Source: Eledone cirrhosa
Lineage: Eukaryota
Assembly (NCBI GenBank): GCA_964016885.1
Contig: CAXHJY010001403.1
Location: forward strand, 1 to 64,000
Reading direction: 5' to 3'
Length of the DNA: 64,000 bases
The position numbers and the translations under genes are program-made. Shown piece by piece: positions 24,287 through 59,606 of the stretch. The notes beneath the pieces were generated by a model. It was not told the DNA's origin. It made no database searches and saw only the letters and a program-made list of their open reading frames with translations. Positions within the stretch are counted from its first letter, which is position 1. The number at the start of each line of letters is the position of its first letter.

Positions 24287-26990
24287 CAGTGTGGACATTG
24301 GTATATTCTACGACCCCCTGGTAATATACATACAGTGTGGGGACATTGACATTCTACGACCCCCTCGTGATATATATACAGTGTGGGGACATTGACATTC
24401 TACGACCCCCTGGTGATATATATATACAGTGTGGGGACATTGACATATTCTACGACCCACTGTTGATATATATACAGTGTGGGGACATTGACATATTCTA
24501 CGACCCCCTGGTAATATACATACAGTGTGGGGACATTGACATTCTACGACCCCCTGGTGATATATATACAGTGTGGGGACATTGACATATTCTACGACCC
24601 ACTGGTAATATATATACAGTGTGGGGACATTGACATTCTACGACCCCCTGGTGATATATATATACAGTGTGGGGACATTGACATATTCTACGACCCACTG
24701 TTGATATATATACAGTGTGGGGACATTGACATATTCTACGAGCCCCTGGTAATATACATACAGTGTGGGGACATTGACATTCTACGACCCCCTGGTGATA
24801 TATATACAGTGTGGGGACATTGACATATTCTACGACCCACTGGTAATATATATACAGTGTGGGGACATTGACATTCTACGACCCCCTGGTGATATATATA
24901 TACAGTGTGGGGACATTGACATATTCTACGACCCACTGTTGATATATATACAGTGTGGGGACATTGACATATTCTACGACCCACTGGTGATATATACACA
25001 GTGTGGGGACATTGACATTCTACGACCCCCTGGTGATATATATACAGTGTGGGGACATTGACATATTCTACGACCCACTGGTAATATATACACAGTGTGG
25101 GGACATTGACATTCTACGACCCCCTGGTAATATATATACAGTGTGGGGACATTGACATTCTACGACCCCTTGGTAATATATATACAGTGTGGGGACATTG
25201 ACATATTCTACGACCCCCTGGTAATATATACACAGTGTGGGGACATTGACATTCTACGACCCCCTGGTAATATATATACAGTGTGGGGACATTGACATAT
25301 TCTACGACCCCCTGGTAATATATACACAGTGTGGGGACATTGACATTCTACGACCCACTGGTAATATATACACAGTGTGGGGACATTGACATATTCTACG
25401 ACTCCCTGGTGATATATATACAGTGTGGGGACATTGACATATTCTACGACCCCCTGGTGATATATATACAGTGTGGGGACATTGACATATTCTACGACCC
25501 ACTGGTGATATATACACAGTGTGGGGACATTGACATTCTACGACCCCCTGGTAATATACATACAGTGTGGGGACATTGACATTCTACGACCCCCTGGTGA
25601 TATATACACAGTGTGGGGACATTGACATATTCTACGACCCCCTGGTGATATATATACAGTGTGGGAACATTGACATATTCTACGACCGCCTGGTGATATA
25701 TATACAGTGTGGGGACATTGACATATTCTACGACCCCCTGGTAATATATACACAGTGTGGAGACATTGACATTCTACGACCCACTGGTAATATATACACA
25801 GTGTGGGGACATTGACATATTCTACGGCCCCCTGGTGATATATATACAGTGTGGGGACATTGACATATTCTACGACCCACTGGTAATATATACACAGTGT
25901 GGGGACATTGACATTCTACGACCCCCTGGTAATATATATACAGTGTGGGGACATTGACATTCTACGACCCCCTGGTAATATATATACAGTGTGGGGACAT
26001 TGACATATTCTACGACCCCCTGGTAATATATACACAGTGTGGGGACATTGACATTCTACGACCCCCTGGTAATATATATACAGTGTGGGGACATTGACAT
26101 TCTATGACCCCCTGGTAATATATATATACAGTGTGGGGACATTGACATATTCTACGACCCCCTGGTAATATATACACAGTGTGGGGACATTGACATATTC
26201 TACGACCCCCTGGTGATATATATACAGTGTGGGGACATTGACATATTCCACGAGCCCCTGGTGATATATATACAGTGTGGGGACATTGACATATTCTACG
26301 ACCCCCTGGTGATATATATACAGTGTGGGGACATTGACATATTCTACGACCCACTGGTGATATATACACAGTGTGGGGACATTGACATTCTACGACCCCC
26401 TGGTAATATACATACAGTGTGGGGACATTGACATTCTACGACCCCCTGGTGATATATACACAGTGTGGGGACATCGACATATTCTACGACCCCCTGGTGA
26501 TATATATACAGTGTGGGGACATTGACATATTCTACGACCCCCTGGTGATATATATACAGTGTGGGGACATTGACATATTCCACGACCCCCTGGTAATATA
26601 TACACAGTGTGAGGACATTGACATTCTACGACCCCCTGGTGATATATATACAGTGTGGGGACATTGACATATTCTACGACCCCCTGGTAATATATACACA
26701 GTGTGGGGACATTGACATTCTACGACCCACTGGTAATATATACACAGTGTGGGGATATTGACATATTCTACGACCCCCTGGTGATATATATACAGTGTGG
26801 GGACATTGACATATTCTACGACCCCCTGGTGATATATATACAGTGTGGGGACATTGACATTCTACGACCCACTGGTGATATATACAGTGTGGGGACATCG
26901 ACATATTCTACGACCCCATGGTGATATATATACAGTGTGGGGACATTGACATATTCTACGACCCCCTGGTGATATATATACACAGAGTGT
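24287..26990 (+). repeat. 46/48-bp minisatellite, about 57 units
   Basis: Unit cagtgtggggacattgac(at)attctacgacccMctggtRatatataYa. Confidence 0.97.
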
Positions 26991-29424: not shown

Positions 29425-29921
29425 GGTGACTTTGGACATCCTGCAGGACTAAAAACAAAACCTGTCAAAGGGCAAAGGAGCTCTTAAGAGTCAATGGCCA
29501 TCCAAAATCACCGGGAGAGATGACCCCTTAGCCTTTGTCAAGGCAGAATTCTAGGAGAAGGAAAACTCTGATATAACACCTGCAACCCTGATGGTATCCA
29601 ATGATGTTGACTTGTTCTTCTTTTTGGTAAATATCATCTTGGTTAAGAGAGTGGGACTGGCTTTGTGCAGTGCCTTTGCTCACTATAAAAGCTTCACGGC
29701 ACAGGCATTGCTTTATATCTGGATATCTCTCTGCACTTGTCCTCACATGGTACCATGGGCCCAGCACTATGTGTCAATAATTGTCACAAGTGTAGTGTTT
29801 GTACCAGAGTTTTCAAGTCGCTGGCTGGACTAAAAAGTCACACTCGTTCAGCGCTTCGGTAGGGGTTCTCCTACATGGATATAAAGTAGTGGCCGTACTC
29901 GAAAACGAGTTGGCAGCCACC
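29425..29921 (+). mobile_element. 5'-truncated copy of the RTE-5'UTR-like non-autonomous element, inserted in a TA array
   Basis: Reverse complement of 6986-7483. Confidence 0.8.
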
Positions 29922-35848: not shown

Positions 35849-35885
35849 GAAAGATTTGAATGGATACAGTTTAGTTGAAAGGAAT

Positions 35886-36006
35886 TTATTGACACGTGTT
35901 TCTATAACAGTTACATAACCTGAAAACGGCTGCTATCTACAAAGTTTTAGTTATGCAGACATTCAATATTTCAATGTTATTATTTACTGTCATTTCATCA
36001 GAATAA
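35886..36006 (-). ncRNA. Type I hammerhead at the 3' end of the Naiad-type PLE
   Basis: Reverse complement ttatt-CTGATGA-a atgacagt...actgttat a-GAAAC-ACGT-GTC-aataa. Confidence 0.85.
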
Positions 36007-36575
36007 TATTACTGAGGACCTATTTTGGTTTTTATAGAGAATATTAGGAGGGAGGGGTGAAGTTGTTAGAAGAATAGTTGAGGGAGTGGTTTTTTGATAG
36101 CAGTGAGAATTTTTGGTGGCAGTGAGTGATTAGATTCCCATCTGTTGTTTTGACATTTTTATAGAATATATTATTGGTTATTTTTCTAAATTTATAGAAG
36201 GATTAGAGATAGTAAAGATATGCGTGGTTGGTTTTGTGTTTGCACTTAATTTACATTCAGACTTAAATTTTTCTTTCAAGTGTACGTATCCTTTCACCCA
36301 CGCATTCACACACAAATATATTTGCACACCTCTACAAAATACATATACTCACATTCACATATTCATACTTACATACATATACACATGTATACATATATAT
36401 ATATATATATACACACATGTATTCATGTACATACATACGCGTTCATGTGTATACATTTTCATACTCAACTTATCTTTATATACACACGTATAGACACACA
36501 CATATATACATACATACTCTAGTCTATGTGTACACATATACACATACATACACATCCATACATATATATATATAT

Positions 36576-36644
<69 letters not shown>

Positions 36645-36912
36645 CACTTTAATACATGAATACACTTACATCTAACTATACACATCAAACATATATATAT
36701 ATTTACTTATTTATATACATTTTCACATATATATACATACTTATGGACGTTTTTAGACACATTCATTATCGCATATTTGCACCTATTCTCATCAGCATAT
36801 CTTTCCATTATTAGTGTGGTAATTTAAGGTTATTAATATATGTTGAGAAGAGATTGTTTTTATATTTTTCTAACTAGATTAAGGTTTATATAGTTGGGGG
36901 GATGTCCCTCTT

Positions 36913-39150
36913 TTATGTAATATTCGGCTTGTAGTGGGAAAAAAGGGTTTTAGTTCTGTGACGGCAGAATAATGTTCGTTCAATTCTGTTATTCAGCAAT
37001 TTCTTCTTGTGTGTGATTATGTAATAAATCTCAAGATTACACAATTTGCAGAAATTTTGGCTCCTGGAAAAGCTTTGGGTTTTAGCTAATTTCTCCCATT
37101 TTAGGGTAAACTTTTGATCGCTATCCCTGAGCGTCCAGGCTTTTTCTGCTAAAGTTGTTGCATTTCTTTGGCTCTGGTGTTTTATTGAGTAAGAATGCCT
37201 ATATAATCGAGATTTAAACGATGTTGCCGTTGATCCCACGTAATACCACTCGTTGCCTCCGGATTTAATGGTACACTTATAAATAATATTTTTTTCCAGG
37301 CAGTTATTGCCGAGGGGGCAGTTGTCAGGATAGGTGCAGTTACAGTTGTGTACGTTGGGTTTTCTCTGGAGTAGTATTGCGGACGAACTTAGGTGTGGTT
37401 TATTTATGTTCTGTAGTGTATTGTCTACTGTTTTTTTTGTGTTCTTTGTACTTAAGTTCTTAGTGTTTTCGTTTAACCTTCTAGTATTGATCTTTTTTAT
37501 GTGTTGTTCAAGGTTTAACGCTGTAGAGTATGACAGTCTTATAGTGGTAGGGTTTAGGATTTTGTGGTATTTGTGTGATGTAGGAAAATGTCTCTTAATT
37601 ATTTTAAAGAAGAGTACTGGTAAATTTGTACTAATGGAACTATTGTATTCGGGGTTATACCATAAGTACTCTTTGCATCGCTTTCTATTAGTTTTGTTTG
37701 TTGGTTTACTGGTGTGCATACTATGGTAGTAAGTGTGGTTTGGTGTTGTGTTATTATATCTACCCATGTGGGATTTATTTTGGGTGTTTTGATTGTTCCC
37801 ATCTATATACTCTATTTTGTTGAGGTAGCCTGCTTTACTAAGGGCGTTATCGTAGTACTTGGCGTGTTCCTTAAATACTTGTATGTTAGAAGATAGACCT
37901 GAGATTCTAAGGGAAATATGTTTAGGGATAGATTTAATTATAGAGATGGGGTGGTTAGAGCCAACATTTACGTATTTGAGATTTTCATTCAATTTATGAA
38001 ACGGTTTAATCAAACCAGAGTTTAAATTGAGTGTGACATCCAGGAAGTTAACTACTTTAAGGTTGTATTCATATGTTATAGTTAGTCCTATTTCGAGTAG
38101 TAGTTTTCTTATATCTTTGCGTAGTTTTTCTAGTTTTTGGTTATTTAGGTTTTTAACTAGGAGGAGAACATCGTCGCGGTATATTCCGCCGTGGAAATTG
38201 CTGAATTTTTCCTGGAGTCTAAAGGCGATAAATAACCCCACAATATCAGTTATTTCCGCCGAATCGTTAGAGCCCATTGTTATGTCAAAGTTAGAGGGTC
38301 TATCTTTACGTACCCAATAACTGTTCTCAAATTTGACTATAGTTTTCCTAGCTTCTAATATAATCTTAATTTCATCGTTTGTAAGGTCAGAGTTATCCTT
38401 AGCAAACTTAATGGCTCTATTCAAAGTTTCAGGTGATATCGATGAGTAATATTCATCGATATCAAACTGGATAAACTTAGATTTATTCTTATTGCTAATG
38501 CTATTAAACCATCTTATTGCTTCTTGGGTCTTCCCACAGAGTTTAATGTCAACCTTAGCCTTAATTTGGGGGATGATTCTATCTCAGATATATTTGCTTA
38601 TTTTACCTATATCTGATTTAGAGGGGCAGATTAATCTAATTTTAGGGTCATTATCAAAGTTTACCTTATGGTCCTTAAGATTGAAGGTGGGTACCGCCGG
38701 TAAGAGTGGTCCTGTCCTATCTTCGATTCCGAGATTTTTCACTATTTCGCATGCCTCATCATTGATGTGCTTAAGAGTTACCTCATTCGTTTTTCTATAT
38801 TTTTTATGTAATTCTTTTCGAATGAAGTTGTTGTATGTAGTGCAATCCATAGTATACAGGTTTGATGTTTTGTCCGCTTTTACTACAATTCCTTTGGTGT
38901 TTTTAAGGTCGTCCAGTAGTTTTTTTAATATCTTTCTGTAATTTGCTGTTGGTGTTGCGTCCTTTGAATTTAATTTTAAGGATTAGGTTCATAAGGTCCT
39001 GCTCAAATGCATCTAATAGTGGGTTGGTGGGTGGGTTTTTACAAGTCCTAAAACCGAAATTGTTGTTTACACCACTTTCTAATGTTGAGTTGATACGGCT
39101 TCTATCATAGTGGAGCGTTTTCCACCTGACACGTCGAATGAATTCATTAG
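36913..39150 (-). pseudogene. Naiad-type PLE RT and GIY-YIG endonuclease, with an in-frame TGA at 38584-38586 and a probable upstream frameshift
   Basis: RRVRWK, KADKTSNLY, LKDHK, RLICPSKSDIGKISK, FIQFDIDEYYSSI, FDITMGSNDSAE, GIYRDD, NFLDVTL, CNC..CPL...C, IIYKC..YYVGST, CKLCNLE, CRHR. Confidence 0.9.
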
Positions 39151-39192
39151 TCTACTGTGTGTAATATTTATATTACAACACAACGGAAAATA

Positions 39193-39254
<62 letters not shown>

Positions 39255-39322
39255 AAGGTTTAGTAAATAATGAAAAAGTTTCAAAATAAATTTTAAAAAA
39301 TTGACTTTACCTACTATAGTTA

Positions 39323-39404
39323 CCTTTACCGATCGGTTTCGAATCCCAAAAATAAAACGTAGGCCATACGGCCCTCGTTGCAAAGAGAGATTCTCGTCAG
39401 AAGG
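39323..39404 (-). ncRNA. Type I hammerhead, family C, intact
   Basis: Reverse complement cctt-CTGACGA-gaatc...gattc-GAAAC-CGATCG-GTA-aagg. Confidence 0.88.
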
Positions 39405-39805
39405 TTCTTTTCATTCAAAGAATATAAAATTCCTGAATTTAAATCACAAACTAGCGCTATCAAAGACTGTTCCTGGGATGAGAGTGGATGATGTAGAACA
39501 GGTTTATCAAGGGCCGTAGTAAAGATAGAGGCAAAAGGAGGTAGGTCGAACTAGCCACCGCTGTTATCAGCAGCAGTCGGAATGACCCGGTTTGTTCTCA
39601 ACGTATGTGGAGGTAGTAGTAATATGAAATACGTCCTTTCACGCACAAGGCGCCAAGGTACGCATGTATTGTCCAACCAAGTGCCAGTGTGGTTCAATGG
39701 CGGGTTAATAAATTAACGAGCCAGAACAAATATAAACAAGGTTTAGTAAATAATGAAAAAGTTTCAAAATAAATTTAAAAAAATTGACTTTACCTACTAT
39801 AGTTA

Positions 39806-39887
39806 CCTTTACCGATCGGTTTCGAATCCCAAAAATAAAACGTAGGCCATACGGCCCTCGTTGCAAAGAGAGATTCTCGTCAGAAGG
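39806..39887 (-). ncRNA. Type I hammerhead, family C, intact second copy
   Basis: Identical motif displaced by 483 nt. Confidence 0.88.
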
Positions 39888-39984
39888 TTCTTTTCATTCA
39901 AAGAATATAAAATTCCTGAATTTAAATCACAAACTAGCGCTATCAAAGACTGTTCCTGGGATGATATGTATATATAAATATATG

Positions 39985-40065
<81 letters not shown>

Positions 40066-40368
40066 GTATATATATATGTATATATATATGTATATATATG
40101 TATATATATGTATATATATATATATGTATATATATATGTATATATATGTATATATATGTATATATATATATATATATGTATATAAATATATGTATATATA
40201 TATGTATATAAATATATATATATATATATATATGTATATAAATATATGTATATATATATGTATATATATATATAAATATATGTATATATATATGTATATA
40301 TATATATAAATATATGTATATATATATATAAATATATGTATATATATATATATGTATATATATATAAA

Positions 40369-40408
<40 letters not shown>

Positions 40409-40466
40409 TTTATATATATATACATATGTATATATATGTATATATATATATATATATACATATATT

Positions 40467-40518
<52 letters not shown>

Positions 40519-40558
40519 CATATGTATATATATGTATATATATATATATACATATATT

Positions 40559-40590
<32 letters not shown>

Positions 40591-40595
40591 CATAC

Positions 40596-40630
<35 letters not shown>

Positions 40631-40652
40631 CATATATTTATATATATACATA

Positions 40653-40720
<68 letters not shown>

Positions 40721-40724
<4 letters not shown>

Positions 40725-48099: not shown

Positions 48100-48238
48100 T
48101 GTATATATATGTATATATATAATGTAGGAGGTGAGTTTTATTGTAGTACAATAAAGCAATGCAGATATCGGATAAGAAGCACTCTACAGTTTGTAGGACT
48201 GGAGTATACATAATATATATTATATAATATATATTATG

Positions 48239-48302
<64 letters not shown>

Positions 48303-48364
48303 TATATGTATATGTATATATATGTATATATATATATGTGTATATATACGTATATACACATATA

Positions 48365-50430
48365 CAAAAAAAATCAACAAGCTGAAATACTGTCAGCAGC
48401 AACACATCAACTTGACTGCCATTTCATCACTAGAGATTAAAAAACATAACCTCCAAAACAACATAATGTCCCTCATCAACAATCAGAGAAGAGCTGAAGA
48501 GGCCTGGGCCATTGAGAAGATCAAACTCAATCCCAAAGTGTTCTTTTCATTTGCAAAAAAACACAAAATCACTGGCTCTACTGTTGGCCCTCTAATTGAT
48601 GAAAATGGCACTCTTCAAGACAATGCTAAAACCTTGGGTGAGATACTGCAGAAACAATACTGCTCTGTTTTCAGCAATCCTGATATGGCCGATCTGGGCT
48701 GTATCGGCGATGTTACTCCCCATTACACCTTATCGGACATAACGTTTGGCGCCCCTGATGTCTTGGCGGCAATAAAGGAAATCAAGCATAATTCAGCAGT
48801 AGGTCCCGATAGGTTCCCTGCTTGTGTCTTGAAGGCGTGTCAACACCAACTTGCATCTCCTCTTGCCAATCTGTGGCGGAACTCACTGGATGCTGGATAT
48901 GTGCCAGAAAACCTTCTATCCCAGTCTGTTGTCCCAGTTTTCAAAAAGGGAAACAAATCCCTTGCCGTGAATTACCGTCCAATCTCACTCACCTCTCATA
49001 TCATTAAGGTATTTGAGCGAGTGGTGAGATCGCGAATGACCCACTTCCTTGAGAGTAACAATATGCTGAACTCCAACCAGCATGGATTCCGTAATGGAAG
49101 GGATTGCCTGACGCAGCTACTGCATCACTTTGATGACATTTTGAGAGCCTTGGGAGAGGGTTCCAACACTGATGTTATCTACCTTGATTTCAGCAAGGCC
49201 TTTGACAGGGTTGATCATAACATTCTACTGAGAAAGCTGTCCAATATTGGTGTCACTGGAAAGCTGCTGCAGTGGATCAAGAGCTTCCTGTCAAACAGAA
49301 CCCAACATGTTGTAGTTGAGGGAGTCAAATCAAGCCCAGCCAAAGTCAGTAGTGGGGTCCCACAAGGCACTGTGTTGGGCCCACTTCTCTTCATCATCTA
49401 TATTAATGACATCACTGACATCATCAAACACAGCAACATTAAAATTTTCGCTGATGATTCCAAGCTCCAAAAGGTCATCAATGGCGTGGATGACCGGATA
49501 AGCCTTCAGTCAGACCTACTGGCTGTTACCCAATGGGCAGAAAAGAACAACATGTTACTGAACGAAGACAAATTCGAACTGATCCACTTTGGAAAAGAGG
49601 ATGCTCTGAAACTCCCGTACTCCCTTCCCTCCGGGGAAACTCTCGTGGCATCTAACAACATCAGAGACTTGGGAGTAACCGTGGACAGCAACATAAGCTG
49701 GACCACGCATATAAGCAGCAAAGTTGACATGGCCCGCAGAATGTGTTCCTGGATCCTCAGAACCTTCCAGTCGAGAGATTCCCGCACCATTATCCTTCTC
49801 TTCTCTACTTTCGCCCGACCACACCTTGAATACTGTTGTCCACTGTGGTCTCCCCACACGAAACAAAGTATCATGAAACTTGAAGCTCCTCAAAGGGCAA
49901 TCACGAAAAAGATAGATGGCATGTCAGACCTTGACTACTGGGGTCGATTAGAAAACCTGAAACTTTACTCACTCCAACGTCGCCGTGAGCGTTATATTAT
50001 CTGCATGATGTGGAAAATGTTCCATCATCACTGCCCAAATGATGTTGGCATCGCCTTCAAGATACACCCAAGGCTTGGGCCCCTTGCTATCCGTCCCATT
50101 CAAAAATTTAAATCGCAACTCATAACAACAATACGGCACAATTATTTCACCTCAATCGGCCCTGCTCTCTTCAACATCACACCAGGACACGTCAAAACAG
50201 AAACTGACCACACAAAATTCAAGAAGTCTTTGGACAAATTCCTCCAAGTAATCCCGGACAAACCACCCACACCCGGATATGTCTCCGCAAACAGTAATTC
50301 TCTTCTCGAATGGGCCATAGTGCCCAAATCCTGAATTGAAAGACTTCGCCAGGTGGTGCTATTAAGTTAGACATGGCCTGGGCCAATACTGGCCAAAACA
50401 TTTCAAAGTTATTCAAAGTTATTCAAAGTT
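48365..50430 (+). mobile_element. CR1/L2-group LINE, 5'-truncated (no endonuclease), open RT frame to 50334, (ATTCAAAGTT)n tail
   Basis: NPKVFF, GPD, NYRPISLTS, QHGFR, DFSKAFD, PQG, FADD, YCCPLWSP. Confidence 0.95.
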
Positions 50431-51686: not shown

Positions 51687-51821
51687 AGACAGTTTTATAA
51701 ATAAATAGATCTGACATACCGTTCAACATCGACTTGTATTTGAAAAGTTGATTTGGCAGTGAAAAATTGTAAACAGAAAGAAAGAAAGAAAGAAGGAAAG
51801 AAAGAAAGAAAACGAAGAAAG

Positions 51822-54800
51822 ACGTCATGCAAGTCTCGCAGATGCCTCGGCAGCCTGTTGAAGAGTTGAGGGCCCTTGAATCCTAGGCTATTGCAATACC
51901 TGCTCCTTATTCTAGATGTGGAAGACGGGACCTTTGGCACCACACAGTGACGTCCTGTTCGACGGTTGGTCCAGCTCCCAATGCCAAAGTTTGGTGCTAG
52001 TCCCTCCAGGATTTTCCACATGTAGATCACTGCGTATCTCTCCCGTCTTCGCTCCAAGGAGTAGAGGTTCAGTTCCTTCAGCCTCTCCCAGTAGCTTGTC
52101 TCCCTCATCTTGGCAATCCTCTTGGTGCAGCTTCGCTGGATTGCCTCAAGCTCTGTGGTTAGTTTGACACTATGGGGTGACCACAGCTGGGAGCAGTAGT
52201 CCAGGCGGCTTAGGACAAAAGTCCTCCACAGTGTCAACATGGTGTCTCGATCTCTTGTAAGGAAAGTCCTCAAGATCCAGCCAGCGAATCGTCTACATGC
52301 TGTCGCCACCTTCATGATGTGTGAAGAAAAAGATGCATCATCGCTCATGTCTATGCCCAGGTCTCGTATCGATTTTGACACGGGGATATCGGTCCCTCCT
52401 GGTCCTGTGTAGCTGTGTTCCGCTATATTTGTGTTTGTGTTTGCAGGTTTGTATTGTAGGGCTTGGAATTTGCCAGCATTAAACTGCATGTTGTTTTCTT
52501 CCGCCCATCTGTATATGGCATCCAGATCCTGCTGTAAGAGGGCAGCGTCAGCCGGGTTTTTGATTGCCTGTGCTACCTTAGTGTCATCAGCATAGCTAGT
52601 GAGGGATGTTGTTGCATGCACCACAGAGGGCATGTCCGAGAGAGCCACCAAAAACAGTAGTGGTCCCAGGACTGTCCCCTGAGGCACCCCACTTGTTATC
52701 GGTGTTTCCCTCGAGAGGGCCCCATTTGCTGCGACTGCCTGGCTTCTGTCCCTCAGGAAGCCATGCAGCCACTCACCTACTTTTCCAGTTATGCCGAGTC
52801 CGTGTAGTTTGTGACATATCATTCCGTGGTCGACCTTGTCAAAGGCCTTCGCAAAGTCAAGATATATCACGTCTACATGTGAGCTGTCTAGTAGCTGTCT
52901 CAGTACCCAGTCGTAGTGATGTAGCAGCTGTGTAAGGCAGCTTCTTCCTGGGCGGAAGCCATGTTGCGTGCTAGTCAGGCGGTCATTTTCTTCGAGGAAA
53001 GTGATTAGTTTCTTTCTGACGACTCGCTCCATGACCTTACTGATATGCGACGTCAGGGAGACTGGCCTATAGTTCTTGGCCTCCGCTCTACTACCTCCTT
53101 TATGGATAGGGCATATTGTGCCTTCTTTCAGCTCCCTGGGTAGTACACCGCTAGCCAAGGAGCTTCTGAAGAGCATCTTCAGTGGAGTTGCTAAGGCCCG
53201 CTTACATATTTTTAGGAGAACTGCTGGGAATCCATCAGGTCCAGCAGCCGAGTCTGTTCTAATTTCATCAATGGCGTACACCACATCCTCCTCCGTTATG
53301 TCTATGTGGTTGATGGTTGCCATTTCTTCATGTAGTGTTGTGGCATCAAAGAACTCCTCTGGATTCGTTATTTGCATGTGCCTCAGTGGACATGTGAACA
53401 CACTTTTGTACTGTTCGTTCAGTATTTCACATATCTCTTGGGGATTTTCAGTTAATGAACCGTCCGTGTGGAAGAGTGGTCCAATCTTGCAGTGTACTGA
53501 GGCAGTTTCTTTTGCAAATTTAAAGAAGGCCTTAGGGTTTGTTTTAATGTTTTCTATGGCCCTGTTCTCTTTCCTTGCCCTCTCATTCTCATGTGAAAAC
53601 TTGAGTGCAATCTCGGTGTCAAGTAGTGCACGTTTCAAATAGGATTCCTTCTTGTTTTGGTTTTGTTGACTATTCAACTGGTTTGAGAGTTTAGTTCTAC
53701 GTCTCATAAGGATTTTCCTATCTCTGGGAATAAGATTTTTGTGTCTGTTTGCCTCTTTCTCCGGGACACACTTTTTGCATATGGTGTGTATCGTTGTCAT
53801 GAAGTGTTGAAATTGTGTGTTAGTGTCTTGTGTGGCGATGTTTGCACTCCATGTTTGCTTCCGGATTTCACTCTTAATCTTCTTTCAGTCAGCCCGTAGA
53901 AGTTAAGGCTGGATAGCGTCCCGGAGCTTCTTGGTGGTTTTGTCTCTGTTGGTTCTCTTGGACCACATATCATTAGCTCTACCAAGTTATGATCCGAGAG
54001 AATTGTTGGTGTCACCTTTACATTGTGGATGAGCACTTCGTTGTTTGTAAAATAGAGGTCCAGGACATTTTCGCCTCTTGTTGGGAGGAGTATTGCTTGC
54101 TCCATGAACAGCCTGTGTGTGAGGGCCAGCAGGGATTCCGTCTGTCTCTGTTCTATTGACGTCATTCCAGGGAGGAGGTGGCCCTCAGGCCATTTGACCT
54201 TTGGTAGGTTGAAGTCTCCCAGCAGTAGGATGTTGAGACCCTGGTCCAGTTTGTCAAGGACCTCTTCTATCCTACTTAGGCTATCCTCAAATTTACCCTC
54301 ATGACTGGGGGCATCGGGCGGCCGATATGTGACACATATTACCGTCTGTAGTTGCTTCATATGTATTATCAGTGTGTCACAGACTGAGTTTGAATGTGTC
54401 AACAGTACAATTGGTGTGACATCTTCACGGATATACAGAGCAACCCCACCATGAGTTCTCTCCTTCCTGTCCGAACGAAATACAGTATATTTCGGTATAT
54501 GTATTTCTGCATCAGCTATACTGCTTGTCAGGTGCGTTTCGGTTAGTGCCATGCATAGTGCTTGATTGCTTATGGCTAAGTCTCCCAGGTAGGAAATTTT
54601 ACTCATGTTGCTGAGTTTCACCAGGCCCCTGACATTCAGCAGCAGCACTGGTGTGACTTTTGGGGTGCCAGTAATGGCTGTCGGTATGACACCTGGTCTG
54701 GTGTCAGCGGCGGCGACTCTGGGTCCCTTAACTGCGGTGGTCTCGAGTGCTGGTGTGGATGACCCTGGCTCTGGAGACGATGCAGCCAGGTCAGCTGTCC

Positions 54801-55066
54801 CACAATCTTCTCTGCCATCACTATAAAATTTTCTGATCTGCTGCTGCCATCTGTATCTCGTCGGCATGTGCGTGCCTTCTCCTTGTTGGTGCAGCACGCG
54901 TGACATCAGCATACTTCTGGAGCGGCTTATTTCGGCTTAGGCTGGGGCATGTTGCGCGAGTATGATGGGCATAGTTCGTTTGAGACCTAGGGTGGGCGAA
55001 TCTGCATCCCATCCCTGTCTCTCCATGCCAGCATGTCCCGTTCTTGAAAAACTTGCACATTACTTG
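51822..55066 (-). mobile_element. CR1/L2-group LINE: CCCH Zn-finger ORF1 remnant, APE endonuclease and RT; frameshift and stop near 53890; truncated at both ends
   Basis: [22 protein letters not shown]; LNVRGL, TETHL, HGGVALY, YRPP, GDFN, SDH; NYRPVSLTS, DFAKAFD, PQG, YADD. Confidence 0.93.
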
Positions 55067-59161: not shown

Positions 59162-59606
59162 TGCATGCTACTGTACGTCTGTATACATATATGTATGTAC
59201 GTATACACACATACTTACATTTCAGTAAGTGCCGTACTAAGAGTGAGAAATGAAATTTCGTTTTCATTTTATTTCAACTTATCGTTTTCGGTATGCCTGA
59301 CCGACTTGACTCACTCGATATGCAACTTAGGCTGCTCGGCCGTTAATTTTCATAAGGAAAGTATATACTTTCGAACGTTCAACTATCTGGCAGAAGGGTA
59401 TACGGTGCTGATGATAGCTAACAAGCTTGAAACTAGTACATCGTTCCTGTGTCAGTGTTGAACAAAAAAAAAATGGTGATGTGGTTGCCTTAACACCGTA
59501 CGACATAAAATTCAGGGCGTTCAGTTTGTTTACAAACGAACAAAGCGGCGTTATAACCAGCGTCCGCTAAACTGATGCGTGCATATATGTATGTGTACCT
59601 GTATGT

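Follow-up and report, generated by a model that had tools for sequence, protein, structure and literature searches.

The window analysed here is a 64,000-nt stretch of Eledone cirrhosa DNA (contig CAXHJY010001403.1, positions 1 to 64,000, forward strand), in which two near-identical repeats, each with a hammerhead motif on the minus strand, lie between TA tracts. The arrangement raises the question of what kind of element the repeats belong to, from which template they were copied and which enzyme inserted them. A preliminary description took them for a young, ORF-less retrozyme of about 1.5 monomers that would yield a 483-nt circular RNA and was probably mobilised by the RT of a PLE.

Layout and genomic distribution of the family C insertion

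The direct repeats (39247-39481 and 39730-39964) are 235 nt each, are offset by 483 nt and differ by a single mismatch (39294/39777), with 248 nt of spacer between them (39482-39729), which bears out the repeats, intact minus-strand hammerheads and bounding TA tracts initially described. The features of this insertion, which we call family C, are the following.

39247..39964, minus strand: whole family C insertion, a single arm of 1.49 monomers, with its 5' end at monomer position 329 and its 3' end at start site 1 (position 80)
39327..39809, minus strand: 483-nt monomer from cut site to cut site, predicted to be the released RNA
39805..39888, minus strand: upstream type I hammerhead, cut after 39810, supported by core conservation and compensatory stem changes in older subfamilies
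39322..39405, minus strand: downstream type I hammerhead, cut after 39327
39730..39737, minus strand: start site 1, internal copy, monomer position ~80, GUUUAUAU; the insertion ends at the second copy (39247)
39622..39629, minus strand: start site 2, monomer position ~188, UUUCAUAU
39622..39729, minus strand: 108-nt "tail" between the start sites, a concept taken from the available text of PMC11167929
39597..39612, minus strand: CTCC-N6-GTTGAG motif, 9 nt past site 2, common to Hydra PLE 5' UTRs; candidate RT-binding hairpin
39196..39251, no strand: (TA)n target, common to the inverted arm of the adjoining PLE-A copy
39964..40721, no strand: (TA)n-rich tract at the 5' end of the insertion

The longest ATG ORF within the monomer encodes 44 aa and lies on the opposite strand, and no tRNA-derived promoter was found in the window. 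The monomer folds modestly (z = -2.3) and forms no viroid-like rod. A plant LTR retrozyme was ruled out, since the motif is type I rather than type III and the "spacer" belongs to the repeating monomer. The insertion is an ORF-less metazoan non-LTR retrozyme and a young copy, and its 1.49 monomers agree with the length first estimated.

A 24-nt core of the family has 1,206 exact matches in the 3.0-Gb genome and none for the reversed control, so the repeat is not a product of chance. A pattern for the junction of site 1 with TA sequence, older subfamilies included, gave 1,700 matches compared to 6 for its control; the corresponding genome-wide pattern for site 2 gave 19, was too narrow and was set aside. 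We mapped 145 match groups and kept 134 insertions, dropping 11 groups that were short, below 84% identity, cut by a locus edge or segmental duplicates. Forty-three of the 134 were collected with less bias, by walking along chromosome C1 (median 1.44 units), while the others were picked by full-length similarity and are biased toward multimers. All 134 are head-to-tail multimers of 0.6-12 units in total, and at least two intact hammerhead cores occur in one arm of 84/134 (14/43 in the less biased subset). Near-identical copies lie on many contigs, indicating that the family is dispersed and mobile, and at least two subfamilies, ~11% apart, are each very young.

Both hammerheads in the window are identical in design, with a 5-bp stem I, CUGACGA, a 7-bp stem II, GAAA and a palindromic stem III, and carry a long, branched loop on stem II. 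Cleavage is predicted between GUA and AAGG in both, as the preliminary description had placed it for a 483-nt unit. The core is kept in 129/134 and 131/134 insertions, and in older subfamilies stems I, II and III all show compensatory changes, which points to structural constraint. Stem III is mostly palindromic across the family, with a 3-nt loop instead in some older copies; the palindromic form has been tied to dimeric hammerhead activity in the accessible part of PMC4209133. The predicted active fold is less stable than the MFE by 2.1 kcal/mol. A search of Rfam with 39255-39960 gave no hammerhead match at E values up to 10, and with the whole window the matches listed (150 of 685) held only microsatellite noise. 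Since 8/9 predicted Xenopus elements failed to cleave in vitro, according to the text available of 10.64898/2026.07.22.740005, self-cleavage of the family C hammerhead cannot be assumed. Comparison of the stretch with contigs from three sequencing runs yielded no information on strand, ends or expression.

Hammerheads of this kind occur in the pLTRs of PLEs (PMC4209133, as far as its available text goes), and local tandem amplification from pLTRs has been proposed (10.64898/2026.07.22.740005, in the part available). We therefore considered whether the repeats are what remains of the ordinary pseudo-LTRs of an autonomous PLE, or else a satellite grown at the DNA level. None of the loci sampled, among them L001-L130 by tblastn, L208-L297 as judged by their flanks and 40 regions around site 1 junctions, held a family C copy that served a PLE ORF as its terminal repeat. 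The only PLE-linked candidate, L321, was rejected as a 45-nt chance fragment nested in the TA tract of another PLE. Thus the arrangement that the preliminary description had named as decisive against a retrozyme, copies always attached to a PLE ORF, is not what the sampled loci hold. Nor is a satellite expected to form insertions that are dispersed, end at fixed 3' sites and have inverted arms, and the pseudo-LTR or satellite explanation is largely refuted. Searching for a partner by its hammerhead in 20 regions (15 at further core matches, 5 at other family C matches) returned family B or C throughout, none of the 27 matches to a short-stem hammerhead pattern adjoined a PLE ORF, and no autonomous family among those examined carried the retrozyme's hammerhead or tail sequence.

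The window holds further repeats. A 355-nt family, repeated in tandem every 476 nt, lies between TA tracts at 19941-20913, 21044-21399 and 59220-59582, and a hammerhead scan of it found none. LINE-type RT ORFs lie at 48214-50334 (plus) and 51695-54936 (minus), one with an AP endonuclease; a 47-48-nt minisatellite of ~57 copies occupies 24289-26982. Near-identical dispersed duplicates pair 6987-7483 with 29425-29921 (497 nt, inverted) and 16914-18318 with 49005-50409 (1,405 nt, direct).

Two 3' end sites and the neighbouring Hydra-clade element

The 3' ends of 199 arms fall almost entirely at two places: 115 at monomer positions 76-84 (site 1) and 76 at positions 172-196 (site 2), together 191/199, and 189/199 arms run into TA-like sequence. 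The two sites lie 80 and 188 nt past the cut, 108 nt apart. The 5' ends, in contrast, are scattered round the monomer. The circularly permuted copies anticipated in the preliminary description are accordingly present at the 5' side, where ends vary, but not at the 3' side, where they are fixed.

Sixty-five insertions consist of two arms placed head to head: in 57 each site takes one arm, in 2 a single site takes both, and in the other 6 one end is atypical. Site 1 is therefore paired with site 2 in 57/59 informative inverted insertions (p=3e-15 against 0.5). Which arm is longer is not fixed (27/57), and both arms exceed one unit in 15 insertions. The copy in the window, with its one arm, represents the simple case. 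The rule also holds in sister family B (5/5 inverted copies), which has a 484-485-nt unit, 3' ends at positions ~92-96 and 199 and the same hammerhead 3' core; its window copy, at 21560-22380 on the minus strand, has one core mutated. We found no earlier report of a one-arm-per-site rule in the main texts of the open literature searched.

Next to the retrozyme lies a separate insertion, PLE-A.

35849..39195, minus strand: Hydra-clade PLE copy (PLE-A), ORF broken by a frameshift and a stop; the main arm ends at its own site 1
~39140-39195, plus strand: short inverted arm of PLE-A, ending at PLE-A site 2 and sharing its TA tract with the retrozyme insertion

The translations of PLE-A, read by eye, show a C-terminal endonuclease-like motif, RWK, DKT and a CxCX5C linker, and its target is (TA)n. 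We therefore assign it to the Hydra clade from these protein marks as they are described in the available text of PMC8557442; a Pfam search of PLE-A gave no match. The preliminary description had called this neighbour a Naiad-type element, which we reject, since Naiads have an N-terminal GIY-YIG and DKA. Its 3' region holds two hammerhead-like cores, both imperfect, and measures ~1.1 kb (35849-36912; L131-L150) with an internal TA/GT microsatellite in a unit of ~3.6 kb. The PLE-A family is young and often intact (146 of 147 scored matches at 97-98%), and the genome encodes an intact PLE-A candidate enzyme of 773 aa. A Hydra RT query returned 42,192 first-look candidates in the genome. A second PLE family, at 8699-12272, is of the Penelope/Neptune type (GLKF, DKG, C-terminal GIY-YIG), has an inverted arm and is represented by many intact 784-aa frames in the genome.

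PLE-A follows the one-arm-per-site rule in 9/9 complete inverted copies, with sites 115 nt apart, in a set drawn from 20 regions of which several were selected for opposed ORFs. The tails of families C and B and of PLE-A are similar in length (108, 107 and 115 nt), compared to ~40 nt in the other intact PLE family of the window. In addition, a motif of the form CTCC-N4-10-GTYGAG lies 4-9 nt past site 2 in all three, a definition made after inspecting them. Upstream of five further Hydra-like N-termini (39-55% aa identity) the motif is intact in 3/5 and degenerate or truncated in 2/5; in the other PLE family, 24/24 loci lack it, many of them truncated at the 5' end. No earlier report of the shared motif was found in the main texts of the open literature searched. 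Plain alignment of the site 2 region with PLE-A was not significant, 185/2,570 windows scoring equally well.

Because the two-site rule, the tail lengths and the motif agree, a Hydra-clade driver of the family C retrozyme is likely on these sequence comparisons, despite the unshared hammerhead and the non-significant alignment; PLE-A itself is only a candidate. Mobilisation by a PLE, as originally suggested, is likewise supported by the two-site rule, the (TA)n target and the motif common with Hydra PLEs. A further non-coding family (L061, L223, L276) has the same site 1 hairpin and a CTCC/GTCGAG motif, and the motif also occurs in several other repeats, one at window position 8526 (plus).

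The template for copying

Successive units meet at the cut site without a scar, with 0/381 junctions carrying an indel there. Seamless junctions would be expected of a circle, and they also fit an uncut linear multimer transcript, in which case PLE-type twin priming would be kept, the hammerhead would be mostly passive and long arrays would be remade by DNA-level duplication. They count against a cleaved linear monomer on which the RT jumps from 5' end to 3' end, building multimers without ligation. Non-LTR RTs do jump templates, and, as such a monomer would predict, a number of 5' ends coincide with the cut site. The arrays are nevertheless not subfamily mosaics, divergence being 0.25% within an arm and up to ~12% between subfamilies, and we regard copying from a cleaved monomer as very improbable.

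We asked whether variants shared among units could separate a circle from a linear multimer. Forty-three distinct rare variants are common to all units of an insertion, one of them spanning 11 units across both arms. In columns covered by at least three units, rare variants occur in all units (23) or in one (108) more often than in subsets (13), a distribution that speaks against the linear multimer. A>G changes make up 11/43 of the all-unit variants compared to 10/202 of the single-unit variants (Fisher p=1.4e-4), and 6/23 compared to 7/108 when at least three units are required (p=0.012). Such enrichment in the all-unit class would follow if a single monomer were edited and the edits copied at every turn, and it too disfavours the linear multimer, although the contrast comes mostly from one older subfamily (~5/25 vs 6/48 in the two youngest). 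Editing of A to I prefers U or A before the edited A, and 9/11 all-unit A>G changes follow U or A against a background of 65%, a weak signal that would fit such editing.

Single-unit variants show a different bias, T>C outnumbering A>G by 48 to 10 on the RNA strand, on both genome strands (134 insertions) and most strongly in an older subfamily. RT wobble error was left aside as its source, given a several-fold spread in rate between subfamilies and only 15 T>C vs 6 A>G in the youngest, and no antisense editing context was seen for these changes.

Homogeneity of the arrays initially looked like strong proof of a circle (0.23% vs 5.4% in 52 insertions) but failed against nearest siblings and was dropped. 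Compared to its nearest sibling insertion (n=86), divergence within an insertion was lower in 35 cases, equal in 17 and higher in 34 (p=0.39). Since it is not below nearest-sibling distance, array homogeneity does not prove a circle, and the test is neutral toward the linear multimer.

Some observations do favour a linear multimer. In vitro, the anole PLE used unprocessed RNA as its main substrate and did not need hammerhead cleavage (PMC11167929, in its available text). In two arrays (G000:C2:370972997 and G000:C17:7692804) linked variants alternate every second unit, and the arms of one two-arm insertion have a unit-specific variant in common, in register, which points to templates that were sometimes dimeric or linear, or to duplication of the DNA; the alternating arrays, with a triplicated locus that has 3.48 vs 2.48 units, are evidence that arrays can change at the DNA level. 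However, copying from a linear template can only make arrays shorter, and arms of 9-10 nearly identical units nevertheless occur. The 5' ends, moreover, show a mild excess at the cut site (11/199 vs 2.5 expected) that hints at cleavage in vivo, although microhomology and the palindrome may inflate it. Taken together, we consider the uncut multimer unlikely, and a circular template is favoured for family C by these sequence patterns.

Proposed mechanism and relation to known systems

We propose, at a probability of roughly 65%, that the predicted circle of the 483-nt monomer is inserted into (TA)n by a Hydra-clade RT-endonuclease that primes at two fixed sites. An array with two hammerheads would be transcribed, from a promoter that our searches did not find, and then cut, and the monomer would be closed by a host ligase, as reported for other retrozymes. 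A Hydra protein, probably as a dimer, would bind near the CTCC/GTYGAG element and nick both strands of (TA)n; each DNA end would pair with a UAU(AU) site, at position 80 or 188, and be extended round the circle. The cDNAs may then be joined to each other, giving an inverted two-arm insertion, or to the far end of the target, giving a single arm as in the window. A more specific version, which we advance tentatively and at somewhat under even odds, is that an asymmetric Hydra PLE dimer copies the ribozyme-made circle by rolling-circle reverse transcription, with one fixed site per active site, 108 nt apart, and is recruited by a CTCC/GTYGAG hairpin copied from Hydra 5' UTRs.

That metazoan non-LTR retrozymes are tied to PLEs is already published, and both mobilisation by PLEs and a circular template have been proposed for them (Cervera and de la Pena 2020, PMC7229834; Li, Clavereau, Pollet 2026, 10.64898/2026.07.22.740005; each in its available text). 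Family C resembles these elements in its non-coding tandem units with a type I hammerhead, low GC and dispersed multimers. Its 483-nt unit compares with RNAs of 170-400 nt in PMC7229834 and 51-972 nt in 10.64898/2026.07.22.740005, and its long, branched loop II is a further difference. The strict (TA)n target, the two fixed 3' ends with paired inverted arms, and the motif that links it to one PLE clade do not appear in the portions available of those retrozyme descriptions. A circle was shown for coral and mussel retrozymes, according to the same partial sources, and is predicted for family C.

With Hydra-clade PLEs, as far as the available text of Craig et al. 2021 (PMC8557442) describes them, family C shares the (TA)n target, partial tandems, inverted 5' copies, a one-end tail and a hammerhead upstream of the ends. 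It differs in lacking an ORF and in its tail of 108 nt (30-40 nt is described there for PLEs), and it has no extended sequence identity with any Hydra family that we examined. Chlamys MRC1-type elements, in the same source, are also ORF-less PLE passengers with multicopy head-to-tail insertions; unlike family C, they have 3' sequence in common with their partner and mostly no hammerheads.

In vitro, the RT of the green anole Poseidon PLE starts at two internal sites, which lie downstream of the hammerhead and set the tail; nicking and extension take place on both strands of the target, a dimer is predicted and the reaction needs the RNA that lies 3' of those sites (Frangieh et al. 2024, PMC11167929, in the part available). 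Family C fits the two internal start sites and the extension on both strands. Poseidon start sites are described there as having no target homology and no strand difference, in contrast with the UAU(AU) matches to (TA)n in family C and arms that nearly always end at different sites.

In the text available of PMC7229834, 10.64898/2026.07.22.740005, PMC8557442 and PMC11167929, copying of retrozyme circles by PLEs is so far only proposed, and the origin of PLE tails and inverted copies is left open. Family C offers a young substrate of 483 nt on which two start sites are mapped, together with a target that is known and a motif that is a candidate for binding, and the same genome encodes an intact candidate enzyme of 773 aa. 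The Hydra link makes the driver testable, as a concrete enzyme-substrate pair for this mechanistic question. If the asymmetric-dimer version is true, the 483-nt RNA would serve as a donor that is complete in itself and specific to one clade, from which concatemers are inserted into (TA)n.
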